The position numbers and the translations under genes were made by a program. 64,000 nt of DNA from a virus, in the IMG/VR virus record IMGVR_UViG_3300034107_000725, positions 64,001 to 128,000 of that record. One strand, given 5' to 3'. Below, piece after piece: positions 11,912 through 39,369 of this stretch. The notes under the pieces are model-generated. The model saw only the letters and a list, made by a program, of their open reading frames with translations, had not been told where the DNA came from and did no database searches. Positions within the stretch are counted from its first letter, which is position 1; the number at the start of each line of letters is the position of its first letter.

Positions 11912-11952
11912 CATGTGTTGTCTGTAACTCTATATCAGCAGGAGTGGCATAT

Positions 11953-14226: not shown

Positions 14227-14243
14227 CACTTGCGGTACGCGAG

Positions 14244-14279: not shown

Positions 14280-14303
14280 ACGTGCATCCAAATGGTGTAA
14301 GCT
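14275..14303 (+). promoter_or_regulatory. Possible sigma70-like promoter for the head/RNAP operon
   Basis: TTGTTA-17 bp-TAAGCT, 40 bp upstream of ATG 14343. Confidence 0.35.
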
Positions 14304-14342
14304 AGGTTAATACTCAGACCCGCCAGGAGACATACAAAGCCC

Positions 14343-15422: not shown

Positions 15423-15432
15423 GGAGATTGAT

Positions 15433-15843: not shown

Positions 15844-15856
15844 AATCCGGAATTAA
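15840..15856. promoter_or_regulatory. Recurrent near-palindromic site TTAAAATCCGGAATTAA
   Basis: Overlaps stop 15843 and abuts the SD of the next gene; other copies at 3235, 4762 (rev), 33414, 39729, 53059, 62764 (rev). Confidence 0.7.
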
Positions 15857-15867
15857 AGGAATACGAC

Positions 15868-16266
15868 ATGTCGCTGGTGATCGGTAATATGACTGGTGTG
15901 GTCTTCTTCGGACCCAGGGATCAACCTAAGGCGGTACGCTGGTGGGCTGAACGCGGACAACTACACTGGGAAGATTCCCGGACGAATGCATACGACACAG
16001 TGTCGGTTCGAGAATTCCTACTACGGCTACAGGGTATCAGTGATATGCTGTCCAATGGCCGTAAAAAAGAAAATCAAGGCTTCATGCACTCGGATGAAGT
16101 CGAGCGACATATGCGGTTTATCGAGGAAGCCTTAGAACTTGTACGGAAGGCCAAGGAACAAGGAATTCCGGAAGATCCCAAGGTACGAAGACACAAGGCG
16201 ATGGACCTCCCCGTCACAGTAGTGATGCCGTCTGCTTTGAACAGTGGTAAGGGTGTGACTTTCTAG
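15868..16266 (+). CDS. Hypothetical protein
   Basis: SD AAAGGA; in-operon ORF. Confidence 0.7.
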   Translation: MSLVIGNMTGVVFFGPRDQPKAVRWWAERGQLHWEDSRTNAYDTVSVREFLLRLQGISDMLSNGRKKENQGFMHSDEVERHMRFIEEALELVRKAKEQGIPEDPKVRRHKAMDLPVTVVMPSALNSGKGVTF

Positions 16267-16276
16267 GAGAGCAAGG

Positions 16277-16720
16277 ATGCAGACAAAAGAAGCGTTTAAA
16301 CTTGGATTTTTGGCTCGTTGTGTGGAAGAAGGCTTATCGCCAGAACAAACACACACGTTGGCCAAAATGGCAGCAGATCAGCTGGAAAAACGATCACTCA
16401 GTCCTAACCCACTAGGTTGGCTAACCGGACAGGTCACAGCTCCTGTCAAGAACATAACAGACGCCTATAAGGCGGTGCTTGACTCTGCTTCGTCTACTGT
16501 GCCCCTGGCGGCCTTAGCCATGGCGGTGCCTCCGGCTCTTGGCGGCTCTGCAGCTTGGCTCGCAAACCGAGCCACGGACACGGATGCCACAGATATTGAT
16601 CAGGTTAAGCAGAAAGAATTGTCGGATACATATCGTCGGATGGCGGCTCAAATGAACCGACAAAAGCAGCTGCGTAACTACAAGCAGGAACGCAAGCGAA
16701 CAGGTCGGGTCTACTTGTAA
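16277..16720 (+). CDS. Putative internal head protein with one hydrophobic segment
   Basis: TKEA, AKMAA; hydrophobic VPLAALAMAVPPALGGSAAWLA. Confidence 0.6.
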   Translation: MQTKEAFKLGFLARCVEEGLSPEQTHTLAKMAADQLEKRSLSPNPLGWLTGQVTAPVKNITDAYKAVLDSASSTVPLAALAMAVPPALGGSAAWLANRATDTDATDIDQVKQKELSDTYRRMAAQMNRQKQLRNYKQERKRTGRVYL

Positions 16721-16728
16721 GGACTCAT

Positions 16729-17094
16729 ATGTCAAATAGCTTGGTGAAATTCACCAGCCGCAAGGATGGCAACGGCAGGGGTAATCTATACTGGGAACGG
16801 GCAGACGTGGATGGTCTACCGTTTCGAGGACACTCGGCTCCAACTTATCGAAATGAGGAGTTTGAGGATCGGGTTGTAAGGGTAGCTGATCCAAAGAATG
16901 GTACGTTCTACACCGGTGATCCGGAGCAAAACGCAGCTTATCTCAAGGTCATGGATGGAATTGCTAACTCTTGGTATCACATGGTATTTGTCGAGCGATG
17001 GCGAGCTGAAGGCGACAAGTACCATCATGTTTATGTAGAATGGCTGGAATACTTCCTGGAAGACGGGAAGCCCGCACCGTACGAGCCGAACTAA
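16729..17094 (+). CDS. Hypothetical protein
   Basis: SD AAGGA; in-operon ORF. Confidence 0.7.
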   Translation: MSNSLVKFTSRKDGNGRGNLYWERADVDGLPFRGHSAPTYRNEEFEDRVVRVADPKNGTFYTGDPEQNAAYLKVMDGIANSWYHMVFVERWRAEGDKYHHVYVEWLEYFLEDGKPAPYEPN

Positions 17095-17112
17095 TTCAAC
17101 AAGGATGTGACT

Positions 17113-18000
17113 ATGGACGTTCGAACAGCAAAGGCGTTGCTTAAACAGATTCAACAGGTGAAGCAAGCAGAGACCGGAAATGTCACGGTGGCGGGTTTAC
17201 CTGCACCAGCATCACCAACTCCAACTTCGTTTTCTTTTCTGGCTCGTAATATGCCAAATTTGTTACCTGGCAGCCTGCCTAAAGATTTGGCTAAGCAACA
17301 AAATACTAAGCTACAGTCAGATACTCAAAAGGCCATCATTAGAACTATGATGTTGGCAGCTGGCGGAGGTGCTGCTGTGCGTGGACTTACAGGCTTAACT
17401 AATATGCTAGGCGAATCACCACAAATTGCCTCAACAGGTCGTACTGTAGAAATGCCTGTCGCATATGCCGAGGAGCCGAAACGTAAAAAAAGGATGAAAC
17501 AAGCAGAGGCATTCAAATCGAGTGTCGACACTTATAACCAGGGAGCTACAAACAAAATTGGGTTGAACTACTACATACCGGGCATGCTGATCGGCGGCGG
17601 GTTAGCGGCTTACGGCGGCTGGAAGGGTGTAGACCATCTGCTAGATGCTCAACGGCGTAAGCATACAAATGAGGACATGGAAGCAGCAAAACAGGAATAT
17701 GAAGACGCTCTGCTCGGGGCATATAAAAAAGCAACGGATACGGCACTAGATCAAACCTTTGAGCGTTATGAAAAACAAGCATATCTTGAGAATATACCGG
17801 GAGCTTTACAAGGTGCCGGACTGGCTTACACGGCAGCGTCACTTCCAATCGGTTACATGATCGTTAATGACATGATGAAAAAGAACAGCAAACAAGCCTT
17901 GTTACAAAAAGCTCTGCAAGAGCGAGCTCGTCGTCAAGCCATGACACAGCCACCAGAAATTTATGCGATTCCACACTCACCCAACGAGGAGAGCGAATAA
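17113..18000 (+). CDS. Putative internal head protein with Gly-rich hydrophobic helices
   Basis: VKQA, MKQA, YKKA, EKQA separate three Gly/Ala-rich hydrophobic segments. Confidence 0.6.
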   Translation: MDVRTAKALLKQIQQVKQAETGNVTVAGLPAPASPTPTSFSFLARNMPNLLPGSLPKDLAKQQNTKLQSDTQKAIIRTMMLAAGGGAAVRGLTGLTNMLGESPQIASTGRTVEMPVAYAEEPKRKKRMKQAEAFKSSVDTYNQGATNKIGLNYYIPGMLIGGGLAAYGGWKGVDHLLDAQRRKHTNEDMEAAKQEYEDALLGAYKKATDTALDQTFERYEKQAYLENIPGALQGAGLAYTAASLPIGYMIVNDMMKKNSKQALLQKALQERARRQAMTQPPEIYAIPHSPNEESE

Positions 18001-18003
18001 GCG

Positions 18004-21000
18004 ATGCAACCGCTCACGCCCAATCTGCTTGAGCCGGAATCCTCATCGCTGTTGACTCCGGCTGCATCTATCCAGCCGTTACCGCCTGCTCCCGATTATC
18101 GGGAGTTTGGTGATACGGTAAAAACGCGTTCACGTATTTATGACAACGTACTGAACGCGGCTAAGAACATACAGCCCGTGTCGAACGACCGCCACACACT
18201 TCGGTTGGCGGATGTGGATTACATGGATTCAGATCGGGTCAGCAAGCGGGATCAGAAGGCCGCTATTCTGAACGGCTTGACCCGCGGGCGAAGGCTACGT
18301 GGTACGTGGGAACTGGTGGACAACGCCAGTCAGCAGGTGCTTGATAGTAAGCGGTCTGTGCTTATGACCGTACCTCACCTCACCGAACGCGGTACGTTCA
18401 TTAACAATGGCACAGAGTACACATTAAAGAACCAACAACGCTTGCTCCCTGGCGTCTACACGCGGGAACGTGATAACGGTGAAATTGAATCACACGCAAA
18501 CGTCTTGCCGGGCAAGGGCGTGTCTCACCGTTATTTTCTAGACCCAGAAAAAGGGCAGTTCAAGATTCGCCTGGGACAAGGCACCGTCAGCCTGATGCCT
18601 TTGCTCAAGTCTATGGGTGCGACTTCAGAACAGATTAAAAATGCTTGGGGCAAAGATCTTTATGCCAGTAACTTCAACAGCGATGACGCTGGCGAACACA
18701 AGAAGCTCCGGGCCAAGTTTCTAAATGCTAAAGAGCTTCAAGGGGATGAGCAGGCACAGCGGGCAGCTCTTGTGCAAAAGTTTGCCAACATGGAGCTGGA
18801 CCCAGAAGTCACAAAGCGAACGCTGGGTAATCCACATGCAGGACTGACCCTGGACGCTGTGATGGATATTACCAAAAAGCTAATTCAGGTCAGTCGTCGG
18901 GAAGCCGAGCCGGATGATCGTGACGCGTTAACCTATCAGAGCTTCCTTGGCCCTGAAGATCTACTTGCAGAAAGAATTTCGCGAGATAAAGGTGGTTTAC
19001 GCCGTCAGCTTTTATGGCAAATGTCGGGGCAAGGCAACCTCCAAAAAATGCCATCTTCTGCCTTGCACAAGCAGCTTCAGGCTGCCATTATGGGTTCCGG
19101 GCTGGGTCAAGCGATCGAAGAAATTAATCCGGCAGAGCTGTACGACAAGTCAACAGCTGTGAGCCGCCTAGGCGAGGGCGGTATTCCTTCCACGGATGCT
19201 ATTCCTAAAGAATCGCGTAGCGTTCAGCCCAGTATGTTCGGATACGTGGACCCTGTGCGAACCCCAGAATCGGGCAAGGTAGGAGTGGACACCTACCTTG
19301 CTCGTGGGGCTCGCAAGGGTTCCGACGGCAAACTTTACGCTCAGTTTAACGACGTTAGAACCGGTGAAACCATTTACAAAACACCGCAAGCTGTTGCGGA
19401 TTTGACTTTGGGTTTTCCTGGAAGCATGCAGCAACTCGGGAAACGGGTAGCCGCTATGCGTAACGGAAAAATGGTCTACGTGCCAAAGCACGAGATAGAC
19501 TTAGAGTTACCAAGCATGGAAGAAGCGTTTAATCCGCTTTCCAACATGATACCTATGAAAAGCCAGGTCAAAGGTCAGCGACTGGTGATGGCGTCTCGAA
19601 TGACCACACAGGCGTTACCTATCGCAGGGGCCGAAGCTCCACTGGTTCAGTCGGCGATACCAGGCACAAACGGACAAAAGAGCTACGAAGAGCTTTATGC
19701 CGGTGCGATGGGTGCGTTACGTGCTCCGCAGGGCGGAACGGTGACCGGTGTAGACGATGACGGCATTCATGTGCGATACGAGGACGGTACTTCAGACACA
19801 CATGAGATGTATCAGAACTTCCCGTTTAACCGTAAAACTTTCATACATCAGACGCCAGTCGTAAGGCCTGGAGACCAGTTTGGTCCAGACCAGTTGCTGG
19901 CCCAGTCCAACTATACTGATAAGACAGGGGCAACGGCTTTAGGGCGTAACGCTCGTACTGCTTATGTCTCGTGGCAAGGCAAGAACTTTGAAGATGCCGT
20001 CGTAATTTCTGAAGGCTTTGCCCGGAAAATGGCTTCTGAGCACATGTATCAGAACAGTCTGGAAGTAGACGACAAGACTCAGCTGGGTAAGCATAATTAC
20101 ATTCAGAAGTTTCCTGGTAAGTTCGATAAGGCAACTTTGGCAAAAATGGATGATAGCGGCGTGATTAAGCCTGGAACGGTGGTACACTACGGCGATCCTC
20201 TCATTCTGGGAACTTCGCAGCGGGAAACCTCGTACAACAAAGTCCACAAAAAAGGACAGGCAGGACACACCGATGCAGCAATCATTTGGGATCATCACGA
20301 CGACGGGACCGTTACCGATGTGGTCATGGGCAAAACGGGACCGACTGTCGTTGTTAAAGCGACGTCAGCCATGCAAGTTGGCGACAAACTCTCTGGGCGG
20401 TACGGAGACAAAGGAGTCATTGCTGATGTCATCCCAGACCATCAAATGCCACATGATAGTGACAAACAACCCTTCGAAGTCCTGTTGAATCCACTTGGTG
20501 TCATCACCCGAACCAACCCGGCTCAGATGTCTGAGTTGTACCTGGGTAAACTAGCAGCCAAGCTGGGACGACCTATCAAGGTCCAAGACTTTGATTCAAG
20601 CAAAGACATGGGCGAATGGGTTTCACAAGAACTGGCCCGTGAAGGTTTGTCTGACTTGGAAGACATCAACGACCCGTCTAAAGATCAGAAGATCGGCGGT
20701 ATTGCTACGGGTCATCGGTTTTTTATGAAGCTGCACCACACGGCTGAGTCTAAGGGACAAAGCCGCGGTGGTGGAGCTTACACAGCGGATGATGCACCGG
20801 CTAAAGGTGGGTCAGAAGGCTCAAAGCGAATTGGGATGTTGGATACAAACGCCTTGTTGTCTCACGGAGCTACGGCAACGCTACAAGACGTGAGTGCAGT
20901 TCGTGGACAGAAGAATGACCAATACTGGATGCAGTTCATGTCCGGCTACAATCCAACAGCGTCCAAGGTACCGTTTGTGTATCAAAAGTTTGTCAATCAA

Positions 21001-22443
21001 CTCAAGTCTGCTGGTGTTAACGTCGTCAAGCAAGGCACACAGACAAACATCATGGCGTTGACGGATAAGGATGTGGATGAGCTGGCCGGTGATCGCGAAC
21101 TCCAAAACGCGGAAGGCGTAGACTGGAATAAGGGGCTCAAGGAAATTTCTGGCGGCTTGTTTGACAAGTCGAAGACCGGAGGTCACGGGGGCAATCGTTG
21201 GAGCTATATCAAGCTGCACGAGCCGTTGCCAAACCCGGTGATGGAAGAACCCATCCGGCGTATGCTAGGTTTGACACAGAAACAGTTTCAAGGCGTAATC
21301 TCAGGCACGGAACCGTTATCTAAGTACGGCACAGGTCCGCAGGCTTTACAAAAGGCCCTGTCCGGAATGAATGTTGATGCTGAGATTGAGAAAGCCCGTA
21401 ACGCTATTTCAGCGGGTCGGGCCTCAGACAGGGATGCGGCGGTGAGGAAGCTAGGATACCTGAAGAGTGCTAAAAAGCTGGGTCTCCATCCTGGCGATTA
21501 CATGCTTACAAAAGTGCCTGTTCTGCCTCCTATGTTTCGACCCGTCAGCATGATGTCAAACGATATGCCACTGATTAACGATGCTAACTACCTTTACAAA
21601 GAGTTATTTGAGGCAAATAACAACCTCAAAAGCATTCAGAGCGAATTAGGACATGAAGCATCCGGGCTGGAACGAATGGCGGCGTACAATGCCTTCAAAG
21701 CTGTCACGGGTTTAGGCGATCCAATTAGCCAGAAAAGTCGAGATAAGAACGTCAAAGGTGTGCTTCAGTCTGTGTTTGGTTCCAGCCCCAAGTTCAGTAC
21801 ACTACAACGCAAACTGATTTCCACCACTGTGGATAACGTCGGGCGGGCGGTGATCACCCCCAATCCGGATCTGGACATGGATTCGGTCGGCCTGCCCGAA
21901 GAGAAAGCCTTCAAGGCGTATGAGAAGTTCGTCACCCGGCGGCTGGTCCGTCAGGGTATGTCGATGAGAGTGGCTCGCGAACACATTGCAAACAAATCGA
22001 AGCTGGCACGCAATATTCTGCTTGAGGAGATGGATCATCGTCCGGTATACATCAGCCGGTCTCCTGTTCTTCACAAGTTTGGGATTTTGGCAATGAAGCC
22101 AAGACTAACCAAGGGTGATACACTTCAGGTTAGCCCTCTCATCGTTAAAGGCTTTAACGCTGACTTTGATGGCGATGCTATGAATTATCACGTACCGAGC
22201 ACAGAAAAGGCCCGACAAGAAGCTCTTGACCGACTTCTACCTAGCCGAAACTTGTTCAGTCTGTCAGACTTTAAATCCGTGATGCACGCTCCGGCAAACG
22301 AGTTTGTCGGCGGTTTGTACCACGCTACGAAATCCGTTAGCGATCGCCCTAAAAAGATCTTTCGATCGCTACAGGATGCTAAGCGGGCCTACGCACGGGG
22401 CGATATTTCTATCGACGATCGCGTGCAAATCCTAGAATCTTAA
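18004..22443 (+). CDS. rpoB: Multisubunit RNA polymerase beta subunit fused to the N-terminal half of beta'
   Basis: Beta motifs GTFINNGTE, DPVRTPESGKVG, NFEDAVVISE, GDKLSGRYGDKG, NPLGV, KRIGMLD; beta' motifs PVLPPMFRP, GRAVI, SRSPVLH and catalytic NADFDGD at 22156-22176. Confidence 0.95.
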   Translation: MQPLTPNLLEPESSSLLTPAASIQPLPPAPDYREFGDTVKTRSRIYDNVLNAAKNIQPVSNDRHTLRLADVDYMDSDRVSKRDQKAAILNGLTRGRRLRGTWELVDNASQQVLDSKRSVLMTVPHLTERGTFINNGTEYTLKNQQRLLPGVYTRERDNGEIESHANVLPGKGVSHRYFLDPEKGQFKIRLGQGTVSLMPLLKSMGATSEQIKNAWGKDLYASNFNSDDAGEHKKLRAKFLNAKELQGDEQAQRAALVQKFANMELDPEVTKRTLGNPHAGLTLDAVMDITKKLIQVSRREAEPDDRDALTYQSFLGPEDLLAERISRDKGGLRRQLLWQMSGQGNLQKMPSSALHKQLQAAIMGSGLGQAIEEINPAELYDKSTAVSRLGEGGIPSTDAIPKESRSVQPSMFGYVDPVRTPESGKVGVDTYLARGARKGSDGKLYAQFNDVRTGETIYKTPQAVADLTLGFPGSMQQLGKRVAAMRNGKMVYVPKHEIDLELPSMEEAFNPLSNMIPMKSQVKGQRLVMASRMTTQALPIAGAEAPLVQSAIPGTNGQKSYEELYAGAMGALRAPQGGTVTGVDDDGIHVRYEDGTSDTHEMYQNFPFNRKTFIHQTPVVRPGDQFGPDQLLAQSNYTDKTGATALGRNARTAYVSWQGKNFEDAVVISEGFARKMASEHMYQNSLEVDDKTQLGKHNYIQKFPGKFDKATLAKMDDSGVIKPGTVVHYGDPLILGTSQRETSYNKVHKKGQAGHTDAAIIWDHHDDGTVTDVVMGKTGPTVVVKATSAMQVGDKLSGRYGDKGVIADVIPDHQMPHDSDKQPFEVLLNPLGVITRTNPAQMSELYLGKLAAKLGRPIKVQDFDSSKDMGEWVSQELAREGLSDLEDINDPSKDQKIGGIATGHRFFMKLHHTAESKGQSRGGGAYTADDAPAKGGSEGSKRIGMLDTNALLSHGATATLQDVSAVRGQKNDQYWMQFMSGYNPTASKVPFVYQKFVNQLKSAGVNVVKQGTQTNIMALTDKDVDELAGDRELQNAEGVDWNKGLKEISGGLFDKSKTGGHGGNRWSYIKLHEPLPNPVMEEPIRRMLGLTQKQFQGVISGTEPLSKYGTGPQALQKALSGMNVDAEIEKARNAISAGRASDRDAAVRKLGYLKSAKKLGLHPGDYMLTKVPVLPPMFRPVSMMSNDMPLINDANYLYKELFEANNNLKSIQSELGHEASGLERMAAYNAFKAVTGLGDPISQKSRDKNVKGVLQSVFGSSPKFSTLQRKLISTTVDNVGRAVITPNPDLDMDSVGLPEEKAFKAYEKFVTRRLVRQGMSMRVAREHIANKSKLARNILLEEMDHRPVYISRSPVLHKFGILAMKPRLTKGDTLQVSPLIVKGFNADFDGDAMNYHVPSTEKARQEALDRLLPSRNLFSLSDFKSVMHAPANEFVGGLYHATKSVSDRPKKIFRSLQDAKRAYARGDISIDDRVQILES

Positions 22444-22473
22444 CCAGATCAGATTGACAAGGAGATCATAACG

Positions 22474-23187
22474 ATGGGACTGAACCTCGAGCTTCTTAAA
22501 CAAGCCCGATATAACGTACGGGAGCTGGAAAAATCAGCATTTGTAGCTGCCGGTGACCCGTCAATGGGTGGAGATCCTGCGGCTATGGCTGGTGGCGGTG
22601 CTCCTCCTATGGACCCAGCTATGGCTGGCGGTGCCCCTCCAATGGATCCGGCGATGGCTGGCGGTGCCCCTCCAATGGATCCGGCGATGGCGGGTGGTGC
22701 TCCTCCTATGGATCCGGCGATGGCTGGCGGCGGCGATCCAATGGCTGCAATCATGCCGATGATTCAGCAAGCGGTACAGCAAGCAATGGCAGCCAACGGT
22801 GGCGGCGGTAGTGGTCCACAAGCAGGCGGGCCCGGAATCAAACCCAAGATCGACGTCAACGTCGAAATCATGCAGATGAAGAAGATGTTGGCCAAGATGA
22901 TGGACGCCATGGGAATCCACATGCCCGTAGCCGACATGGTGGCCACACCAGAAGATCTCAATCAGATTGCACAAGGTGGAGCCGGTTTCGCCGCAGCTAC
23001 GCCTGATAACGGTGGCGGACTGGGAGCCATCAAGCCGATACAGGCTATGAAGGCCGCAGAAGACTGGGAAAGCGGTGTAGCCTTTACACCTCCTTCCGAG
23101 AATTCATTCCAGCAGTCACACAACGTCACAAGAAGTACGGCAAACATGGCAACAGCGTTATTGCTGCGTAACCGTATGACGGGTTGA
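22474..23187 (+). CDS. Low-complexity Met/Gly/Pro-rich putative core protein
   Basis: LEKSA followed by (PPMDPAMAGGA)n repeats. Confidence 0.65.
   Translation: MGLNLELLKQARYNVRELEKSAFVAAGDPSMGGDPAAMAGGGAPPMDPAMAGGAPPMDPAMAGGAPPMDPAMAGGAPPMDPAMAGGGDPMAAIMPMIQQAVQQAMAANGGGGSGPQAGGPGIKPKIDVNVEIMQMKKMLAKMMDAMGIHMPVADMVATPEDLNQIAQGGAGFAAATPDNGGGLGAIKPIQAMKAAEDWESGVAFTPPSENSFQQSHNVTRSTANMATALLLRNRMTG
22591..22732 (+). repeat. 33-bp tandem repeat (~4 copies) encoding PPMDPAMAGGA
   Basis: Imperfect units such as cctccaatggatccggcgatggctggcggtgcc. Confidence 0.9.
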
Positions 23188-23203
23188 GCAGAAGGACAGT
23201 TCG

Positions 23204-23428
23204 ATGTTCTTTGTCGAGATATTGGAAAGTATCGGGAAGCCTCCCTTGCGGGTGGAGGCTTCTCAGGTGGTTATTCGAATGGCTGACGGTACTCCCGTCA
23301 GTGTAGCTGCGGTCTTTGGCACTGCAAGCAGTGTTTTGGTTTCACACTGTGAAGACCCAAACTTTAACGCAAACTTGCGTAAGCTGGGCATCAATGAAAC
23401 CGTTATCTCTACTAGACTGAAGGTATGA
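23204..23428 (+). CDS. Small hypothetical protein
   Basis: SD GAAGGA; lies between the two RNAP genes. Confidence 0.65.
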   Translation: MFFVEILESIGKPPLRVEASQVVIRMADGTPVSVAAVFGTASSVLVSHCEDPNFNANLRKLGINETVISTRLKV

Positions 23429-23429
23429 C

Positions 23430-24140
23430 ATGTCCGACCCGACACGATCTGCTGATAAGGCTTATTACGCTTCCCGAACTCCGTTAGATATACGGGGCAC
23501 TCGCGAAGGGCGATCAAATCCGCCAAAATTCCCAAGCTATCAGCACAAAGGTTACGACTCCACCGCGTCGTCTGACAAATACTATGCGGTGCAACCGGCT
23601 AAAGTGGATGCTCCTGTAGCTCAGGCCGTGCGGCAGAAACCTGCACGGAACACAGTAGCACAGAAAACCGAGCTGATTATCACAGATACGGATAATCTGT
23701 TACGGCGGTTAAGCGATATACTAAGAGATAACGATGTTGAGGTCGTTGTTAAAGGCGATGCAGAATTGATCCGACAGGCACGAATGATTTTGGATTTATC
23801 TGTAGGCCGAAACGAGTTTACACGACAGCAGGCAGACTCTGTGTCATTCGCGGTGGTTGAAGCAAAGATCACAGTACCCGACGTAGCGGTTGTGGACGTA
23901 GCACCAGAACCAGTAGTAGAGGTAGCCGCAGAGCCAGAGCCAGTAGCAGAACCGGAACCAGAAGTAATTCCGGAGCCCGTGATACGGGATGAAATTGCTG
24001 AACTTCTGGCAGCACCAACACCGGTTGTCAAAAAAAGTAAGCCTAAGCAGGTCAGACAGGCCAAGAAGCCCGAGGCTAAAACTATCACGGAAGATGACAT
24101 CGCTGCCGCTCTTGGCCTAGGCGATGATAGCGACGACTAA
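23430..24140 (+). CDS. Hypothetical protein with Pro/Glu-rich linker
   Basis: In-operon ORF; VAAEPEPVAEPEPE low-complexity stretch. Confidence 0.7.
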   Translation: MSDPTRSADKAYYASRTPLDIRGTREGRSNPPKFPSYQHKGYDSTASSDKYYAVQPAKVDAPVAQAVRQKPARNTVAQKTELIITDTDNLLRRLSDILRDNDVEVVVKGDAELIRQARMILDLSVGRNEFTRQQADSVSFAVVEAKITVPDVAVVDVAPEPVVEVAAEPEPVAEPEPEVIPEPVIRDEIAELLAAPTPVVKKSKPKQVRQAKKPEAKTITEDDIAAALGLGDDSDD

Positions 24141-24152
24141 GAGGCTGTTTGC

Positions 24153-27100
24153 ATGCTGAATACGACTGTCGGCCAACTGTTGGTAAACGAATCACTGCCT
24201 GAAGACTTGCGGGACTATAACCGAGTCCTGGACAAGAAAGGTATGGGTGCGTTGTTACAGCAGGTGGCTCGACAGTATCCAGAAAAGTACCGTGAAGTGT
24301 CGTTTCAGCTGAGTCAGGTTGGGCAGAGGTCAGCTCAAGACCAGGGGGGTATGTCGTTCGGCATGCGTCACCTGAAACGAAGTAAGATCGCCAACGAAAC
24401 TCGGAAACGGATTCAGGGGCAGCTAGACAACATCTTGTCTGATGACTCGCTCACAGATCAGCAACGCAACGATCTGATTGTGAAAACAGTTGGACGTGAG
24501 AGCGAACCGCAGCAGAAGGCAGTGCTGGAAGAAGCCATTCAAGCCAAGAATCCGTTAGCAATGCAAGTGCTTTCAGGTAGCCGCGGTAAGCCTATGAATC
24601 TTGCCAGCTTGCTGGCAGCAGATATGCTGTACTCGGACCACAGGGATGAGGTTATTCCAATTCCGGTGCTTCGCAGTTACAGCGAAGGCTTGTCCCCGGA
24701 AGAATACTGGGCTGGAACTTATGGTGCTCGTCGCGGGATCATCGCAACTAAGTTTGCCACTCAGGAAGCGGGATTTCTGAGCAAACAGTTAAATCAAGCA
24801 GGTCACCGGCTGGTCGTAATGGGTGAAGAGGGTGACGAAGATCCGGAAGCACCTACTCGGGGTTTGGTCGTTGATACTGACGACATGGACAACGAGGGTT
24901 CGCTTTTGGCTCGGGACGTAGGACCGTACAAGCGAAACACCCCACTTACCCCCAAGATTCTCAAACAACTACAGCGACTTGGCAAAAACCGGATTTTAGT
25001 CAGGTCGCCGATGGTTGGTGGTTCTCCTGAGGGTGGTGTTTATGCTCGAGACGTTGGTATCCGTGAACACGGTACCTTGGCAGGGTTAGGCGAGCAGGTC
25101 GGACTTCAGGCAGCTCAGGCTTTGTCTGAACCGATTAGCCAAGGGCAGCTTTCGGCAAAGCACTCTGGCGGCGTTGCCGGGCAGGAAAAGGCGGTTGGTG
25201 GATTCCAATACATCAATCAGCTGATTCAAACGCCCAAGAAGATGCAGGGTGGAGCTGCTCACTCTACATTGGACGGTACGGTGCAGCGAGTAGAACCTGC
25301 TGCTGCCGGTGGGTTCAACGTAACGATTGACGGCAAGCCGCACTATGTAGGTGAGGGCTTTGGTGTCAAAGTTAAAAAAGGGGATAACGTCGAAGCCGGG
25401 GATGTGCTTAGCGACGGTATTCCCAATCCAGCGGTCATCACTCAGTACAAAGGTGTTGGTGAGGGTCGCCGTTACTTTGTCAACGAATTCCGCAAAGCTA
25501 TGTCAGCTAGCGGTATGCAGGGACACCGCCGCAACATTGAGTTGCTGGCACGCGGATTAATCAATCACGTTAAGCTCACGGAAGAGACTGACGATCATGC
25601 TCCGGACGATATCGTCCCGTATTCTACGTTGGAGCATACATACAAGCCACGGGAAGGCCATGAGCGTCTAACGCCCAAAAAAGCGTTGGGCCAGTATCTG
25701 GAACGTCCGGTGTTGCACTACACCATTGGCACTAAGATTCGCCCGTCGATGCTTAGAGACTTCGATGATTTCGGAGTCCAGGCAATCCCGGTGCATAAGA
25801 ATCCGCCACCGTTCGAGCCACATATGGTACGAGGTATGTACCAAATGCAGCACGATCCGGATTGGATGACCCAGATGTACGGTTCCGGACTCAAAAAGAG
25901 TCTGCTGGAATCCACAGCACGTGGAGCAACCAGCGAGGAACGGGGTACCAGCTTCATCCCCAGCTTGGCGTCAGGCACTGATTTTGGCGAAGTCCCAGAT
26001 CGTGCAGTGATTCAGCCTAAGCCTGCATATTCATTGCCTAAAGTATCCATTCCTGACTTGGAGCCTGAAAATTCAGGATCCACGTTCTTTGGAGGCCGAT
26101 ACAAAGTAGGCATGCAAAAAAGGGCGGTAGAAGCGACCCCACCCAAAGTCGAGGCTCCGGCCTCCACATCTATGTCGGCTCCTACCGCCCCTACTCCCTC
26201 CCCGTCGAATGCCGCAGAGTTGGGTAGCAATAATATTATGTCCCCGGCTACAACTGTCCAGCCCAAACTGGATACAGTGACTCAGCCGATTCAACCGCCA
26301 GCGGATATACCACAGGCAAGCCAGACTCCTAGAGCAAGCCAGACTCCTCCAGCCAGTCAACCGCCGCCAGCCAGTACACCAGCACAGGTTCGGGCAGATG
26401 TGATGCAGGCTTCAAGAACCGCAACTCCGCCTCCGATTCAAGAACCTTTGCCGCAGATTAAAAGACCGTCAACTAAGATGCCAGAGCTATCTACTGGAAC
26501 CGCATCCACTTCTCGGCTAACCAGTTCTCGGCTAGGCTCACAAACAGCAGGCATTCCATGGTGGCGGGCAACAGCAAAGCCGACAGACACGACATGGAAT
26601 AAAACAGAAAATACCGAATTCCATTCTCAGCCTAACTCTGTGTTAGGTGCGACACCGTCTGTGGCCAACCTGGCTGCGAGTCGTTCCTACGCACCAGAGC
26701 CTCCAGCTGCACCTGTAAAGGGTTATGCAGATTATGCTCAAGACGCCTGGGACGCGTTTAAAAACCCTGTAACAACGATTAGTAATCAACTCTACGGTAC
26801 GCCGGAACCTACTGCGGGTAACTCGTTTTCCGATGATGGAAATCTGTTGGCTCGCTCTGGGGTAAATATGGGTCTTAAACAAATGATGGGCCGCTCTGCC
26901 CCGGCTGCGATTACTGCAGCAGCTGAAGCTGCAGTTCCATTGTCTCGGGTGGGTCGATTGGCAGCCGGAGCTCGAGCTTTGTTGCCGGGGTTTTTACCTG
27001 GGGCCAGACTGGCAGCCGGAGGTGCCGCAAGTGCTGCGGGTGGTCTATCTTTGGCACCGGCAGCGATAGGCTTTGCTGCGGTTAACGCAGGCACTGAGCT

Positions 27101-27335
27101 GCTTGACGCAGGCGGTCTTTTGCCAGAATGGGCGGGTGGAGATGGTTGGGGTACTATGGGCTGGGATCAAACTGGCTTCGAAAACGACTTTAAAGATCGG
27201 AGTATACCGGGGGCTGCCTTACATACCGTTATGAACCCACTTAAAAGCATATGGGCTGGCGGTACACGACTAGGTGATGCAGGTTATAGGGGAACGAGCT
27301 GGCTGTACGACAAGTTTAGAGGCGGGGCAAAATAG
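24153..27335 (+). CDS. rpoC: RNA polymerase beta' C-terminal half fused to a ~400-aa non-polymerase extension
   Basis: NTTVGQLL, SGSRGK, bridge helix GARRGIIATKFATQEAGFLSKQL, trigger loop QAAQALSEPISQGQLSAKHSGG, HRRNIELLAR; the extension starts after MQKRA (~26126). Confidence 0.9.
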   Translation: MLNTTVGQLLVNESLPEDLRDYNRVLDKKGMGALLQQVARQYPEKYREVSFQLSQVGQRSAQDQGGMSFGMRHLKRSKIANETRKRIQGQLDNILSDDSLTDQQRNDLIVKTVGRESEPQQKAVLEEAIQAKNPLAMQVLSGSRGKPMNLASLLAADMLYSDHRDEVIPIPVLRSYSEGLSPEEYWAGTYGARRGIIATKFATQEAGFLSKQLNQAGHRLVVMGEEGDEDPEAPTRGLVVDTDDMDNEGSLLARDVGPYKRNTPLTPKILKQLQRLGKNRILVRSPMVGGSPEGGVYARDVGIREHGTLAGLGEQVGLQAAQALSEPISQGQLSAKHSGGVAGQEKAVGGFQYINQLIQTPKKMQGGAAHSTLDGTVQRVEPAAAGGFNVTIDGKPHYVGEGFGVKVKKGDNVEAGDVLSDGIPNPAVITQYKGVGEGRRYFVNEFRKAMSASGMQGHRRNIELLARGLINHVKLTEETDDHAPDDIVPYSTLEHTYKPREGHERLTPKKALGQYLERPVLHYTIGTKIRPSMLRDFDDFGVQAIPVHKNPPPFEPHMVRGMYQMQHDPDWMTQMYGSGLKKSLLESTARGATSEERGTSFIPSLASGTDFGEVPDRAVIQPKPAYSLPKVSIPDLEPENSGSTFFGGRYKVGMQKRAVEATPPKVEAPASTSMSAPTAPTPSPSNAAELGSNNIMSPATTVQPKLDTVTQPIQPPADIPQASQTPRASQTPPASQPPPASTPAQVRADVMQASRTATPPPIQEPLPQIKRPSTKMPELSTGTASTSRLTSSRLGSQTAGIPWWRATAKPTDTTWNKTENTEFHSQPNSVLGATPSVANLAASRSYAPEPPAAPVKGYADYAQDAWDAFKNPVTTISNQLYGTPEPTAGNSFSDDGNLLARSGVNMGLKQMMGRSAPAAITAAAEAAVPLSRVGRLAAGARALLPGFLPGARLAAGGAASAAGGLSLAPAAIGFAAVNAGTELLDAGGLLPEWAGGDGWGTMGWDQTGFENDFKDRSIPGAALHTVMNPLKSIWAGGTRLGDAGYRGTSWLYDKFRGGAK

Positions 27336-27416
27336 TGTTTGGGTTGCGATGTTAGCCCACGTCGGGCTAAACTGAGTTATCCATCTATCTCTTTTTGTAA
27401 AATCCAGGTGATCAGG

Positions 27417-27641
27417 ATGTTCAACGGAATAATGCTTGGCGGTATCAGCGAGAAGTATGCGGGTGCTTACCTCTTGCCTCCAGCCAAACGGAAGAAGAAA
27501 AAGCCACAACCCGATGAAGTTGATCCAGAAGTGCTGGATAAAGTGGCATCTGCCGTTGTGCGTAATCAACAGGCTATCATGCAACAACAACTGGCGGCAG
27601 GCGACCTGGGCGGCGGCTGGAATCCATACGACCAAGTCTAA
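27417..27641 (+). CDS. Small hypothetical (KxA-type) protein
   Basis: EKYA, DKVA; ATG 27417 preferred over 27339. Confidence 0.5.
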   Translation: MFNGIMLGGISEKYAGAYLLPPAKRKKKKPQPDEVDPEVLDKVASAVVRNQQAIMQQQLAAGDLGGGWNPYDQV

Positions 27642-27691
27642 GCCAACATCACTTCTCTGGAACTGACGAGCTGTTGCTCACGGAAGGGACC

Positions 27692-30199
27692 ATGCAAACA
27701 CAACTGAATAAGACAGCCGCCCTCGGCGGCAGCGGCGGCGAAACCGAATTTGAACAGGCTTTTTCTAGCCTGGCCTATGCCTATCTACGGGATAAAGCCC
27801 CACGGTTGCTAGATTTCATGGTCGGTTTTCAACTAGTCGACCGCAATGAAGATAACACCAAAGCGATGGGTATCTTCGGATTTCAAGTTGGCAAGCAGTG
27901 GCTATATGCCCCAGTGTTCTTCTTAAACGGCGATCTCAAAGGTCACGAGTTGCTCTACATGAAGAACAACGACTCCTTTGTGCCGCTGAAGGAAAACTGG
28001 ATTAACTACATTATGAGCCGCAAGCCCCACATCTTGGGCGAGCAATCTGCCTCAAAGTTGCGAGAGCTTGGTGGCGTTTATCCGGATATCCGGACGCTTT
28101 CAATCCCACCTTCAATTGGTGGTGGCAAGCGTGCCAGTGATAACAGCTGGCTTCAAGGCGTGATGCCGATGCTGGCTGCTTTCAAAACCAAAGCGGCTAG
28201 CTCACTCTATCGTGGAGCAGGGAACCGCAAGCTCAATCAAGCTGCTGTAGTTGCCGATCCGTTCGGTGCCGCTTTGGCAAAGCAGGCTTCAATTCTGGAT
28301 TTTAACAACGTCATGCCACAGAGTCTGGAACTGATCAAGATGGCTCACGCTATCTCTGAACGGTACCCGACAATCAAACTGGCGATGCAGAAGTTCTACG
28401 GTGTAGACTGCTTCTCACGCTGGAGCAAAGACCTGCGTAACAACCTGGAGAAGGAAGCCAGCAACATTCTGCCCGTGCAGATTGCGGCCAAACCTTATAT
28501 GCCGGGCAATTTGTTGATCCCAACAGAACGACCAGCCGGACCAATCGATCACGTCAAGCAGGGCAAACTCAATCTGGATGCTCCAGAATACGTGTTTGAA
28601 CGTGGTGGATTTATTGTCGATACGCTTGATGTCAGATTCCAGGTTGAACGGGAATCTGCCGGTATTACAGACAGTCGTGCCGACGACGAAGTATCGAAGG
28701 CTTACAACACTCAAGTTGACGTGCGGATGACCAATCCAACCGAAACCAACTTGTACCGTGTGCTGGAACGTCCAGGCAAGTTCAGCAAGATGCTGGTTGT
28801 GATGCACGGCAGCAGCAACCGTGGACGAGAACCATTTGCCACGTTGGTACGACTGGAAGACAACGGCGACGGTGGTGATAAGGCCTGGCTCAACAGCCAT
28901 GCCACCAACATCTTTGCCGATCAGACCGCGGAACGCGATGAGTGGCGGGAATGGTTTGAAAGCCTGCCAGGCTCGGAATCGTTGCAAGACGGCGGTGAAT
29001 ACATCGCAGTTTCCGAGGATGGCTCGGGTACTGTGCCGTTCCATGTGCAGTCTAACTACGGCGACGGACGTCACCGTGTGGACTTCCGCACTCACGTCAA
29101 CTTCGACGAAGCTCGGCCCAGCACGATGCCTCGTTTGCAGAAGATCACCGATCCGTTTACGGAGGAAGGTTATCACATGCCGAGCACGTACGGTGCCATG
29201 CTGTACACCGATAAAGAGGGCAAGAAAGGTACACGGCTGCGAGCAATTGCCGGTGAGCTTCGCGTGCCTGACTCTTTCAAGTTCCTTAAGCTATCGGAAC
29301 CGCAAAAGCCCAGATCTGGCGAATTGATGCCTTGCTCCAATTACAACAGCCGCAGCGACATGCCGCCGATTCAGCTTGGTAAGATCGACGACATCCAGCT
29401 CTTCTTCTACGAAAAGACGGCTGGGTTGCAGTTGTTAAACAACAGCACAGACGTCTACATTGACTCGGTGCTGGGTTCAGAGCGGGTCAGTCTTAAAGAA
29501 GCCGCGTGGCATCTGGTAAGCGTGCATGGTCTTCGCGAGAAGGCAGCTCGTGAGCTGCTGGAACAGTCAGAACGTAAGGGCAAAACCAGTTACCGGATCG
29601 AGTATGCTCCGGGTTACGGCAATCAAAAGCAGGCTGGACCAAACGACAGCGTGCTGGCTGGCGGCCCAGATGCCCCAATCTTTGACGACTTTGCTGAAGA
29701 GCGAAGTGTTGAAAACTACGGGCCTCGTACTTCTGCTCCAACTCAGTACGGCGGTGAAGCTGCTTACCGTTTGAACCACTTGAGTGCAGATCAAACTGAC
29801 CCAGGTGTATGGAACCCATGGCAGAACTACGAAGCAGAAGACTTCCAGAAGAATGTACAGAAAGCTCAACAGGCTGGAGCACAGGGACAGAAGGAAGTCT
29901 TTGATACTTCGATGATCTCCGGTATGCTCAAGTCCGTTCGGCAGGATTCGCTGGTTGAACGTCACCTGGCTCCGCTGGTTGAATCTTTAGACGCCTTAGG
30001 CCGCCTGTTGATGAACTTCTACTGGCACGGCGAAGAGTTTGAAGATCGCTATGGTAAAAGCGATATGCCTGAGCTGGAAGATAGCCTTCGAAATTCCTTC
30101 GAGGCCTTGGGTGATGTTACGCTCTTCCTGAAAGAGAAAACTGTCGAATCGCCGTTTGATAGCGGTGATGTCAATCTCGAAGAAACTTCAAGGAACTAA
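27692..30199 (+). CDS. Large putative head/core protein
   Basis: NKTAA, GKRAS, AKQAS, EKEAS, EKTAG, QKQAG divide the protein; position in the head cluster; no recognisable enzyme motif. Confidence 0.6.
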   Translation: MQTQLNKTAALGGSGGETEFEQAFSSLAYAYLRDKAPRLLDFMVGFQLVDRNEDNTKAMGIFGFQVGKQWLYAPVFFLNGDLKGHELLYMKNNDSFVPLKENWINYIMSRKPHILGEQSASKLRELGGVYPDIRTLSIPPSIGGGKRASDNSWLQGVMPMLAAFKTKAASSLYRGAGNRKLNQAAVVADPFGAALAKQASILDFNNVMPQSLELIKMAHAISERYPTIKLAMQKFYGVDCFSRWSKDLRNNLEKEASNILPVQIAAKPYMPGNLLIPTERPAGPIDHVKQGKLNLDAPEYVFERGGFIVDTLDVRFQVERESAGITDSRADDEVSKAYNTQVDVRMTNPTETNLYRVLERPGKFSKMLVVMHGSSNRGREPFATLVRLEDNGDGGDKAWLNSHATNIFADQTAERDEWREWFESLPGSESLQDGGEYIAVSEDGSGTVPFHVQSNYGDGRHRVDFRTHVNFDEARPSTMPRLQKITDPFTEEGYHMPSTYGAMLYTDKEGKKGTRLRAIAGELRVPDSFKFLKLSEPQKPRSGELMPCSNYNSRSDMPPIQLGKIDDIQLFFYEKTAGLQLLNNSTDVYIDSVLGSERVSLKEAAWHLVSVHGLREKAARELLEQSERKGKTSYRIEYAPGYGNQKQAGPNDSVLAGGPDAPIFDDFAEERSVENYGPRTSAPTQYGGEAAYRLNHLSADQTDPGVWNPWQNYEAEDFQKNVQKAQQAGAQGQKEVFDTSMISGMLKSVRQDSLVERHLAPLVESLDALGRLLMNFYWHGEEFEDRYGKSDMPELEDSLRNSFEALGDVTLFLKEKTVESPFDSGDVNLEETSRN

Positions 30200-30202
30200 G
30201 CA

Positions 30203-30856: not shown

Positions 30857-30866
30857 GGGGAGCTGT

Positions 30867-34408: not shown

Positions 34409-35893
34409 ATGGCTTTGATCAAATTTGTCTCGCCTTCGGGCTGGGATTTTGAGCAACGGATTGTCTCACCGATCAAGATGAGCAGTCGAGGTTTGATTGG
34501 TGAGGATCGCCGGGAATTCCTGAAGCGAGCCAGCCATGCGTTTTTGCCCCAACTGGACAACGTCAAGTTTGCCAAGGACGAAGTCCCGGTTCACTTGATT
34601 GCTCTTGGAGCCAGCGAAGCCTACGGTCCCAACCGTAACGGTGACGGCTTTAAGGAAGCGACCTGTCGAGAACACCACCACACGTTTACCAAGTTTGCCA
34701 AGTTCTTCCGTAACCATAAGAACAAAGCCGAGCGTGGTGATCCGTACTACGGCTACGTCAAGGCATCAGCTTACAACGAAGACATGCGTCGCGTTGAGTT
34801 GCTGTGTGCCCTAAATGCCGAAAAGTCAGCCGCAAATCGCAACGGTGGATTTGTTGCAGACACTGAGTTGGAAAAGATTGCACGTGGCGAAGACATGGCT
34901 GTCAGTATGGCCTGTCGTGTGCCACATGACGTCTGTTCCTTCTGCAAGCACGCTGCAAAAAATCGATCTGAATACTGCACTCGCGAGAAATGTGCTGCCG
35001 GTGGTTGTCAAAGTAATCTGACACGATTAGTGAAGGTCGGTAGTGATCTTCACCACCTGCACGTTGACAATCCTAATCCAACGTGGTTCGATATTAGCCG
35101 TGTCTTTCGTCCAGCTGACCGTATTGCTTACGGGGCTAAAGCGGACTATCTAACCAAAGCTGCTGCGGATTCTGGAATTTTTGAGTTGCAAGATTACATC
35201 AAAATGGCGGAGAATTCTACCGCACCGCTTGATGTGATTCTGTACCAATCCGGTCACCACGGTTTCTGGTCTGAGAAGTTCGCAGCTCAAGTAAAACTAG
35301 GATATGGACTAGCTGCACTTGAAAAATACGAAACAGCAAGAGATGCTAATACATATCGAGCCCACGCAACTGCCGATTTTCCAATCGAAAAGATGGCAGC
35401 GTTCGGCTCCTCCCAATGCGATACTCAGTTGGCTGCGATGGCCGATCGAAAAATCATCTTGAGTTTGAAGGATTACGCACGATTGGCAGGCCGAGAAGAA
35501 CATGTTAAAAGTGCTGCTGCTTTCTTACCGGGGATCTATTCTCATATGACCACCGATGAGTCGTTACCCCTCAGGGTCGAAAGCGGCATGTGCTCGTTTA
35601 TCGAAAAGACAGCCAACGAAAGCTCTCGTATGCTCGCGGCTACACTTCATGCAGAGTACTCTCTGCAGAAGGAAGCAGTTGAGGATCGGGGCTTTCTGAG
35701 TTGTATCCGGGGGCAGCCTGCTCCCGTGATTGTCCCGTATGAAAAGTCAGCCACTTGTGACGAACACGGTGAAAGGCTTGCCAAGGATTACGCTATGTAC
35801 AAATTGGCAGCCCTCTGGCGTGTCGCCGCAGTGGATACAGACTTTCCATTGACAGTGAGTTTGAGTCTCCGTCAAAATCGAGTTTTTCACTAG
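34409..35893 (+). CDS. Prohead (maturation) serine protease
   Basis: NGDGF, FRNH (His), YNEDMRRVEL, VSMACRVPHDVCSFC (Ser plus Zn-like Cys); lies upstream of scaffold and capsid genes. Confidence 0.8.
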   Translation: MALIKFVSPSGWDFEQRIVSPIKMSSRGLIGEDRREFLKRASHAFLPQLDNVKFAKDEVPVHLIALGASEAYGPNRNGDGFKEATCREHHHTFTKFAKFFRNHKNKAERGDPYYGYVKASAYNEDMRRVELLCALNAEKSAANRNGGFVADTELEKIARGEDMAVSMACRVPHDVCSFCKHAAKNRSEYCTREKCAAGGCQSNLTRLVKVGSDLHHLHVDNPNPTWFDISRVFRPADRIAYGAKADYLTKAAADSGIFELQDYIKMAENSTAPLDVILYQSGHHGFWSEKFAAQVKLGYGLAALEKYETARDANTYRAHATADFPIEKMAAFGSSQCDTQLAAMADRKIILSLKDYARLAGREEHVKSAAAFLPGIYSHMTTDESLPLRVESGMCSFIEKTANESSRMLAATLHAEYSLQKEAVEDRGFLSCIRGQPAPVIVPYEKSATCDEHGERLAKDYAMYKLAALWRVAAVDTDFPLTVSLSLRQNRVFH

Positions 35894-38421: not shown

Positions 38422-39369
38422 ATGGCTAGCTCCACTATGATGACTCAGGAAGAAAGCAAACTCCTGAGCCAAACGATCTTCGAGAAGCTCGCTTCTCGGG
38501 ATTCGGGCCTGGAAAAGCAAGCAATTGACGCAGTCAATGATTTTACCCGCACCAAAATGCGGGAAGATGGCTTTTTCCGCCGAATTATGCCGCCAATCCC
38601 AATCTCCAACGACGATCTCGATCGTCAGGTAGATACGGACAAGCCGGTAAAGATCGTGGACAAAGAACCGAACAGCCCTGCCGCTGTTTCGATTCCTTTT
38701 GCCACACTGCCGACGAACCTGTACATCAAGGGTGACCGTTACAAGGTGACCTTCGATCGTATCGTGACACCTAAGTTCACGAAGGACGTCGATGAGCTTC
38801 GTACCTGGTACATGGATATCCGTCAGGTTCTGAGCGATAACGCCATCAAAGACATGCTGGCTGAAGAAGATGGCAAGTTCATCTCCGCAGTCAACACGGC
38901 TCTGGTTGGCCCTGGCCTGGTCGTCCCGACATCGGGCACGATTCAGTATCAGGAAATCTCAGGCGGTATCACCCGTGATACCCTGTGGGATAGCCTCAAA
39001 ATTATGCCAAACACGCCTTCGAACTTGGAAGTTCACTGCGTGCTGCTTAACAACATCACCATCAAAGAAGTTGCGAAGTTTACTCGTAACGAAATGGGTG
39101 GCGACCTCAGCGAAGAGATCATGCGTAACGGCTGGACTCTGAGCGAGTGCATGGGTGTTAAGTGGGTGATTACGATCAAGAAGGGTCTCGTGCCAACAAA
39201 CACGATGTACCATTTCGCTGATCCTAAATTCATTGGCAAATCGTATATGCTCGAGGATACTACAATGTATATCCGTCGGGAGGCATATTTTATCGAATTC
39301 TTCGCGTACGAGTCACTGGGCGGTACGCTCGGTCACACGTCTGGCCTTGCTCGCGTTGACTTTACCTGA
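38422..39369 (+). CDS. Major capsid protein (HK97-fold)
   Basis: 315 aa, strong SD AAGGAGG, after protease/scaffold/decoration genes; N-terminal leader ending LEKQA; followed by a hairpin at 39394-39415. Confidence 0.8.
   Translation: MASSTMMTQEESKLLSQTIFEKLASRDSGLEKQAIDAVNDFTRTKMREDGFFRRIMPPIPISNDDLDRQVDTDKPVKIVDKEPNSPAAVSIPFATLPTNLYIKGDRYKVTFDRIVTPKFTKDVDELRTWYMDIRQVLSDNAIKDMLAEEDGKFISAVNTALVGPGLVVPTSGTIQYQEISGGITRDTLWDSLKIMPNTPSNLEVHCVLLNNITIKEVAKFTRNEMGGDLSEEIMRNGWTLSECMGVKWVITIKKGLVPTNTMYHFADPKFIGKSYMLEDTTMYIRREAYFIEFFAYESLGGTLGHTSGLARVDFT

Follow-up and report, generated by a model that had tools for sequence, protein, structure and literature searches.

How a phage came to carry a cellular-type RNA polymerase (RNAP) whose beta is joined to the front portion of beta-prime, the C-terminal portion being encoded apart, and at which stage of infection such an enzyme acts, are the questions raised by a locus in the virus record IMGVR_UViG_3300034107_000725. 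The window, that is the whole stretch of DNA analysed (64,000 nucleotides, nt), corresponds to bases 64001-128000 of this 193,990-bp IMG/VR record, which is judged 94% complete; positions are those of the window unless the genome is named. The overall best explanation, to which a probability of roughly 70% is given, is that the two genes encode the sole RNAP of the phage, a two-chain enzyme with an inherited fission, which is packaged and injected and has a sigma-like factor of its own. The polymerase features are the following (lengths in amino acids, aa).

18004..22443, + strand: beta::beta-prime-N gene (chain 1), 1479 aa, identified by Pfam, BLASTP, junction alignment and catalytic motifs
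21025..21060, + strand: beta / beta-prime junction (approximate), placed by a MAFFT alignment of E. coli beta and beta-prime with 12 phage relatives
22156..22176, + strand: catalytic NADFDGD loop, chain 1 residues 1385-1391, aligned to E. coli beta-prime 458-464
24153..27335, + strand: beta-prime-C gene (chain 2), 1060 aa, the rest of beta-prime followed by a low-complexity tail of ~450 aa
24153..25988, + strand: beta-prime-C core, residues 1-612, with the bridge helix, a trigger loop that keeps the conserved His, and C-terminal clamp parts
25989..27335, + strand: beta-prime-C tail, residues 613-1060, delimited by sequence composition

Chain 1 was matched in Pfam by Rpb2_3 (residues 369-435) and Rpb2_6 (residues 598-927, E 6e-46) and, in its beta-prime part, by Rpb1_1 (residues 1159-1214) and Rpb1_2 (residues 1330-1408, E 5e-24); chain 2 was matched by Rpb1_5 (E 5.5e-20). 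Against E. coli, BLASTP aligned chain 1 residues 123-1007 with beta 127-1337 and residues 1090-1476 with beta-prime 160-550. Chain 2 residues 96-340 were aligned with beta-prime 689-939 and residues 405-503 with beta-prime 1196-1295, the E. coli-specific insertion being missing. The core of chain 2 also matched bacterial beta-prime by phmmer, and the corresponding protein gp216 of Salmonella phage Arash was matched over its full length. Chance similarity is excluded by the Pfam and BLASTP E-values. The catalytic elements of beta (NFED, GDK..GR.G.KG with K1065/K1073, E813/D814, and the R1106 and H1237 equivalents) and of beta-prime (NADFDGD, the bridge helix GARKG and the trigger-loop His) are all kept in the alignment to E. 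coli. Judged from their sequences, the two genes encode a true member of the cellular two-barrel RNAP family. The open reading frames (ORFs) and coordinates of the earlier note, gap ORFs included, were all recovered with the ORF list, Pfam and BLASTP, and its reading of the locus as a phage RNAP of the cellular type, in which beta and beta-prime-N form one protein and beta-prime-C another, was borne out by the order of the Pfam domains and by collinearity with E. coli.

The junction and the cut were located by alignment. Residues 1 to ~1012 of chain 1 are beta, and from ~1013 onward the chain is equivalent to beta-prime (~18 to ~554 in E. coli numbering). SAGVNVVKQG, the C-terminal motif of beta, is followed directly and without a linker by the N-terminal strand of beta-prime (MALTDKD). 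Chain 1 stops 88 aa beyond NADFDGD, at the equivalent of E. coli beta-prime ~554, and chain 2 starts 1710 nt further on with MLNTTVGQ, which aligns with E. coli LKDTTVGR (~572). The cut thus falls between the equivalents of residues ~554 and ~572, and a surface loop (555-571) was therefore removed. A split intein at the cut was ruled out, both chains being bounded there exactly by beta-prime sequence that is conserved, and no additional segment of intein size being present. Misassembly, a frameshift artefact or a pseudogene was likewise ruled out as the cause of the split, since the layout is kept in dozens of independent contigs. A megablast of the polymerase locus against the phage collection gave no match, and a promoter and terminator scan of positions 13000-32000 gave results indistinguishable from shuffled sequence.

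Both beta-prime zinc sites and all cysteines are missing from the enzyme. The beta-prime zinc ribbon (E. coli C70/72/85/88) is deleted, with TGGHGG in its place, and all four cysteines of the second beta-prime zinc site (E. coli C814/888/895/898) are replaced in chain 2. No cysteine occurs among the 2539 residues of the two chains, where the genome's frequency of 1.38% would predict 35 (P about 5e-16). The tail of chain 2 consists of P/S/T/A-rich low-complexity sequence and then a Gly/Ala-rich hydrophobic stretch. It is fast-evolving and subclade-specific, parts of it being shared with locus L007 only. Tails of 170-840 aa with differing end modules are confined to the nearest subclade (L042, L044-L049), and beta-prime-C of the other relatives ends at ~612-640 aa.

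The same fusion and cut were found in the closest annotated phages, Salmonella phage Arash and Vibrio phages D69, D148 and D181, at about 29% identity to chain 1 over its full length for the Arash/D69 group. The Arash polymerase (OQ632216) consists of a fused chain of 1525 aa (gp206) and a beta-prime-C of 606 aa (gp216). As here, the fused chain of Arash and D69 ends ~90 aa past NADFDGD and beta-prime-C begins at the TTVG equivalent, so that the cuts lie within a few residues of each other. A first scan of IMG/VR gave 24 loci with the complete fusion (33-83% identity), and a second scan was performed with a beta-only alignment, in which 80 of 267 confirmed relatives were looked at. About 30 IMG/VR loci have the identical fusion and cut point. 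The cut point is constant in all split loci, with a gap of 0.6 kb in D69, 1.0-1.7 kb in others and up to 5.9 kb. A protein search gave >120 metagenomic clusters of ~1475-1500 aa with Rpb2_6 and Rpb1_2 and at least 59% identity across the junction, labelled "RNA polymerase beta subunit" at most. The layout is real and conserved, and is already the norm for a large lineage that includes published isolates; the novelty that the earlier note saw in the fusion and split is thereby largely lost. The Arash paper names the proteins plain beta and beta-prime and leaves the fusion and split architecture unmentioned (PMC10585845). A literature search that included jumbo-phage reviews and was incomplete in coverage gave no paper describing the fusion, the fission or the lack of cysteine. 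What is added here is a fully fused form, read as ancestral, with a single fission, the pair of gap genes, a portal linkage read as ancestral, and the loss of the last zinc site in the clade.

In D181 (OZ196140) and D148 (OZ196545), unlike D69, the fused gene is interrupted: the matched region is annotated with several ORFs and a homing endonuclease. Insertions of ~0.9-1.3 kb that keep the frame and contain no stop were also seen in the polymerase genes of L029:4371-22648 (six in chain 1 and two in chain 2) and of L017-L019, L021-L024, L028 and L030. They recur near chain 1 residues 250, 420, 535, 615, 795, 840, 915 and 1110 and chain 2 residues 200 and 330. Metagenomic homologues carry intein and LAGLIDADG Pfam domains; the genes of the window are without insertions. 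The recurrent insertions of the relatives are probably inteins.

More distant relatives show no cut. About 50 loci at 30-35% identity, on contigs of up to 190 kb, have beta, beta-prime-N and beta-prime-C in a single frame without stops, and 24 of them were confirmed to be one ORF each, of 1992-2157 aa (examples of the fused form are L027 with 2051 aa, L025 with 2097 aa, and L065-L120). L027 is collinear with chain 1 and chain 2 (residues 1-612), within a few residues at the cut. These uncultured phages have the same junction without a zinc ribbon as the phage studied here; they differ from it in having a single ORF without gap genes and in mostly keeping the second zinc site's four cysteines. 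No cultured member with a fully fused gene turned up in the phage collection. In a maximum-likelihood tree of 37 rows, obtained by a quick search, rooted on a single long E. coli outgroup and built with the mReC sequences (see below) left out, the 12 split forms, among them Arash, D69 and this phage, formed one clade (SH-aLRT, the Shimodaira-Hasegawa-like approximate likelihood-ratio test, 99) nested among at least four fused groups. One change of state suffices for the split trait on this tree, and a mixture-model tree of 14 rows agrees with it. Cellular beta-prime is continuous at the cut position, which makes the split the derived state irrespective of where exactly the root lies. The simplest reading of these sequences is one fission of an ancestral single-chain beta::beta-prime gene. 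The wider lineage would have beta and beta-prime as one chain of ~2050 aa; in a sub-lineage (Arash, the Vibrio D69 group and the clade of this phage) the gene would have been cut once, in the surface loop equivalent to E. coli beta-prime 555-571, and other genes would later have gathered in the gap. A single stop codon separates the beta match from the beta-prime-N match in one otherwise fused-type locus (L090:7869-12245); this may be an unfused variant or a sequencing error.

In the clade of this phage, the genes gathered in the gap would include a conserved pair, ORFs 22474 and 23204. The gap of 1710 nt holds three ORFs, all co-oriented with the polymerase genes.

22474..23187, + strand: gap ORF i1, 237 aa, N- and C-terminal helices around four tandem GGAPPMDPAM-type repeats
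23204..23428, + strand: gap ORF i2, 74 aa, five strands and one helix in an AlphaFold2 (AF2) model with a predicted local distance difference test (pLDDT) score of 86
23430..24140, + strand: gap ORF i3, 236 aa, acidic, containing a P/E/V-rich linker

It is conceivable, if doubtful, that ORFs 22474 and 23204, and perhaps 23430, are added polymerase subunits or assembly or packaging adaptors that were acquired at the fission and that hold the halves of beta-prime together or tether the enzyme inside the head. This idea draws on the BLAST clusters and hidden Markov model (HMM) searches, in which the i1 and i2 families turned up between the two polymerase genes, i1 first, in nearly every split locus within the clade at 42-83% identity. 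The i2 HMM matched in ~35 loci, where the homologue mostly abuts or overlaps the start codon of beta-prime-C; in the window the spacers are of 1-30 nt. By HMM, neither family was detected in the flanks of the fused loci, which also speaks for an acquisition with the split. Against it, neither was detected in Arash or D69, which share the split and whose gap genes bear no relation to ORFs 22474 and 23204, and a profile comparison of i2 with the small ORFs that precede beta-prime-C in these phages gave no similarity. ORF 22474 is mostly low-complexity repeats and ORF 23204 has no recognisable fold relative, its AF2 model giving no Foldseek match in PDB at E <= 0.001; neither had a match in Pfam or PHROG. 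A complex prediction of beta-prime-C (residues 1-612) with ORF 23204 scored 0.00 against a mark of 0.32, which gives no verdict either way, and adjacency alone is weak evidence for binding. The three gap ORFs had been called unrelated to the polymerase: this description fails for ORFs 22474 and 23204, which in this clade are conserved companions of the split. The family of ORF 23430 is limited to six loci, the closest relatives of the window (BLAST clusters). In Pfam, i3 gave a sub-threshold, low-complexity match to TonB_N. An assignment of i2 to a "phage connector" fold (ESM Atlas) was discarded, the Atlas model being poor; other Atlas leads were sub-threshold.

The whole 193,990-bp record contains one Rpb2_6 match and one Rpb1_2 match, hence a single polymerase set, and no match to a T7-type RNAP. 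Alpha (PF01000) and omega (PF01192) gave no match across the genome, whereas all 14 control genomes were matched; use of the host alpha is possible. The absence of alpha and omega that the earlier note had reported for the window was thus extended to the full genome, and the search for alpha, sigma or a second RNAP set elsewhere in the record yielded one sigma-like ORF, no alpha and no second set. With neither of the two beta-prime zinc sites and no alpha or omega gene, the enzyme falls outside the definition of the bacterial core enzyme (alpha2-beta-beta-prime-omega, two beta-prime zinc sites). The sigma-like gene lies outside the window.

Genome 139070-139804: sigma-70-like ORF, 244 aa, with Sigma70_r3, a PHROG sigma factor match and homology to Arash gp10

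Its Sigma70_r3 match is above the Pfam cut-off (29.7 bits), the PHROG sigma factor match has E 2e-9, and there are hints of a C-terminal helix-turn-helix.

The two chains would therewith be the only RNAP of a ~194-kb tailed phage, an enzyme of the cellular two-barrel type in which the fusion of beta to beta-prime most likely stands in for the alpha-dimer assembly platform. The polymerase is most likely made late, alongside the head proteins, and packed into the capsid; it would then be injected with the DNA and start early transcription independently of the host, probably with the phage's own sigma-70-like factor, as Arash and the gene context suggest. By analogy with Arash, we regard packaging of the polymerase in the virion as probable. 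Mass spectrometry coupled to liquid chromatography (LC-MS) of Arash virions gave more spectra for gp206 than for any other protein (3516), 1210 for gp216, and 467 with 100% coverage for the sigma factor gp10 (PMC10585845). Arash and about 45 relatives have a portal-fold gene (580-700 aa) at <8 kb upstream of the polymerase genes and in the same orientation. The AF2 model of the portal homologue gave 77 Foldseek matches at E <= 0.001, and all 33 of the matches listed are portal or portal-neck structures. The gene order from the polymerase through the major capsid protein to the tail is the same as in Arash and D69, the genes 3' of the polymerase being homologues of Arash virion proteins and capsid protein. 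The head/tail block (14343-62157) is poor in cysteine (0.81%, compared with 1.63% for the remainder), and the injected virion RNAP (vRNAP) of phage N4 has, like this enzyme, no cysteine (0 in 3500 aa).

Several observations weigh against the overall explanation. The Arash virion preparation contained 116 of ~270 proteins, enzymes of nucleotide metabolism included (PMC10585845); with so many proteins detected, the preparation was not clean, and the abundance of gp206 could be carry-over of a highly expressed late protein. Packaging is moreover read from the mass spectrometry of a relative, this phage being known from its genes alone. In this genome the portal gene lies 49 kb from the polymerase, unlike in Arash and D69 where it is adjacent, and a reductase gene is found just upstream. 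The rooting of the tree depends on one long E. coli outgroup and a quick search, and independence from alpha as a result of the fusion is an inference. Finally, no Sigma70_r2 match was found in the sigma-like protein, and the beta flap-tip helix, to which sigma region 4 binds, is about 7 residues shorter than in E. coli; for these two reasons, use of the sigma-like protein by the polymerase is putative. As to the claims of the earlier note, its packaging inference is plausible and backed by the Arash virion data, with the evidence coming from that relative. Its description of the genes as embedded in the head operon is right as to the strand and the position just upstream of the virion and capsid homologues; the upstream reductase and the remote portal gene do not fit it.

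The same observations could be accounted for by a polymerase made after infection for middle and late transcription, its closeness to the head genes and its abundance in Arash particles being incidental. We consider this unlikely. It is favoured by the ribonucleotide reductase, kinases and ligases in the Arash list, which indicate that cytoplasmic proteins were carried over, by the position of the polymerase genes here after a reductase gene and far from the portal gene, and by the single polymerase set, which would be needed for late genes too. One enzyme could, however, be both packaged and used late. Carry-over also sits badly with a gp206 that exceeded every structural protein in spectra, and incidental closeness with a portal-polymerase adjacency that is kept in ~45 loci; the enzyme is, besides, cysteine-free like N4 vRNAP. 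Packaging and injection of the polymerase remain the preferred reading. A further proposal is speculative and unlikely: a vast phage lineage, largely uncultured, would use a minimal enzyme of the cellular type, free of alpha, zinc and cysteine, that started as one ~2050-aa chain made for packing into the head and threading into the host cell; in the branch where this chain was cut, the gap proteins ORFs 22474 and 23204 would have become lineage-specific subunits or packaging adaptors. That the fusion protein is a precursor from which a head protease cuts beta from beta-prime-N at maturation, giving a working enzyme of three chains, is most improbable: phiKZ virion RNAP subunits and many head proteins are indeed processed by the prohead protease, but here no linker exists and the contiguous conserved beta C-terminus and beta-prime strand leave little accessible sequence.

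The two-chain enzyme can be set beside other known polymerases. With Arash and D69 it shares the features given above; these phages differ from it in retaining the four cysteines of the second zinc site, of which this phage has none, and in lacking the long tail of beta-prime-C. The RNAPs of phiKZ and AR9 are also two-barrel enzymes without alpha or omega, with beta-prime split shortly past the catalytic barrel and a virion form that is packaged and injected (PMC7598289). The phiKZ-like enzymes are defined by a beta in 2-3 chains, two paralogous sets (virion and non-virion) and no sigma-family factor (PMC7598289). They are far more divergent, consist of 4-5 chains and never have beta fused to beta-prime, whereas this phage has an intact and fused beta, one set and a sigma-like gene, and so lies outside the phiKZ-like definition.

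The mReC phages (multisubunit RNAP-encoding Caudovirales; Weinheimer and Aylward 2020, PMC7481178) are tailed and have beta and beta-prime alignable to cellular COG0085/COG0086, as is the case here. The portion of the published subunit table that was consulted gives separate beta (~1000-1521 aa) and beta-prime (~900-1391 aa) and no phage row of 1474-1485 aa (PMC7481178). None of six metagenome ids from fused loci occurs in this RNAP table, and those of split loci that do occur matched other contigs, of which none that was inspected has the architecture described here. By its architecture the present lineage differs from the phages in this portion of the table. The crAss-like virion RNAP, also carried in the capsid and injected, is a single two-barrel chain without sequence similarity to cellular beta or beta-prime (PMC7481178).

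N4 vRNAP is likewise carried in the capsid, injected and free of cysteine, but is a T7-like single-subunit enzyme. Among cellular enzymes, the Helicobacter and Wolbachia fusions show that beta can be joined to beta-prime, the termini of the two lying close in the enzyme, and the gamma / beta-prime split of cyanobacteria and plastids shows that beta-prime tolerates a break past the catalytic barrel. The Helicobacter and Wolbachia rpoB-rpoC fusions keep alpha, omega and the zinc sites and have no second split; this phage is the reverse. Cyanobacterial gamma (626 aa, PDB 8gzg_D) reaches about 65 aa past the end of phage chain 1, and phage chain 2 starts about 12 residues before RpoC2 residue 1. 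The cyanobacterial cut, which the earlier note had rightly put slightly further downstream, thus lies downstream of the TTVG motif and the phage cut just upstream of it, in the same region at a different point.

Cellular-type RNAPs of phages are known mainly from the highly fragmented enzymes of phiKZ and AR9. The present lineage is the opposite, with one chain and a later fission, which makes it a natural experiment on the assembly of beta and beta-prime without alpha and omega. Its residues can be mapped directly because the enzyme aligns easily to bacterial RNAP. Being small, free of zinc and cysteine, and present in culturable members (Arash on Salmonella, the D69 type on Vibrio), it would be an attractive minimal model for structure, assembly and injection. 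The annotation of hundreds of public proteins, called just "RNA polymerase beta subunit", is also concerned, and the lineage may have escaped surveys that sought beta and beta-prime as two distinct genes.

The polymerase genes are surrounded by the following features.

6404-6643, + strand: Sigma70_r4-scoring helix-turn-helix ORF (match 6452-6580), 79 aa, GerE/LuxR-type
11908-14226, + strand: class II (B12-type) ribonucleotide reductase with an N-terminal ATP-cone, upstream of the polymerase/head block
17107-18000, + strand: 297-aa ORF ending 4 nt before the polymerase start
27674..30199, + strand: 841-aa ORF, weak homologue of Arash gp218 (tblastn), which is listed as structural in the Arash record
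34409..35893, + strand: homologue of the Arash structural protein gp222 (tblastn, 37-40% identity)
38422..39369, + strand: major capsid protein homologue (Arash gp226; tblastn, 29% identity over 298 aa, E 2e-32)
41906-50998, + strand: 3030-aa ORF with many collagen-like/tail-fibre repeat matches in PHROGs

The Sigma70_r4 match at 6452-6580, though above the Pfam cut-off, was rejected as a sigma factor, the ORF being a 79-aa helix-turn-helix protein of the GerE/LuxR type. No Pfam or PHROG match was obtained for ORF 27674, for the ORFs upstream of the polymerase or for the portal homologue. A homologue of ORF 27674 comes after beta-prime-C in most split relatives. The reductase, just upstream of the cysteine-poor block, has 18 Cys in 772 residues. 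Other large proteins without cysteine are encoded at positions 35935-37272 of the window and by ORFs 48843-50477 and 131073-136076 of the genome.

ORF 17107-18000 contains several Gly/Ala-rich hydrophobic stretches and is kept in the nearest relatives only; it may act on membranes or be located inside the virion. Encoded outside the window (G000:C1:51353-53428; L122:354-2426) is an SNF2-family helicase that carries DUF6321 at its C-terminus. It is a homologue of Arash gp217, which was detected in virions and whose gene stands directly 3' of beta-prime-C in Arash, not elsewhere in the genome as in this phage. Homologues of this helicase were found close to the polymerase in 8 split loci and 3 fused ones, and it could be a RapA-like partner of the polymerase. 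ORF 41906-50998 shows a strong local GC skew (0.16-0.22) and holds the place of the giant Arash structural protein gp229.

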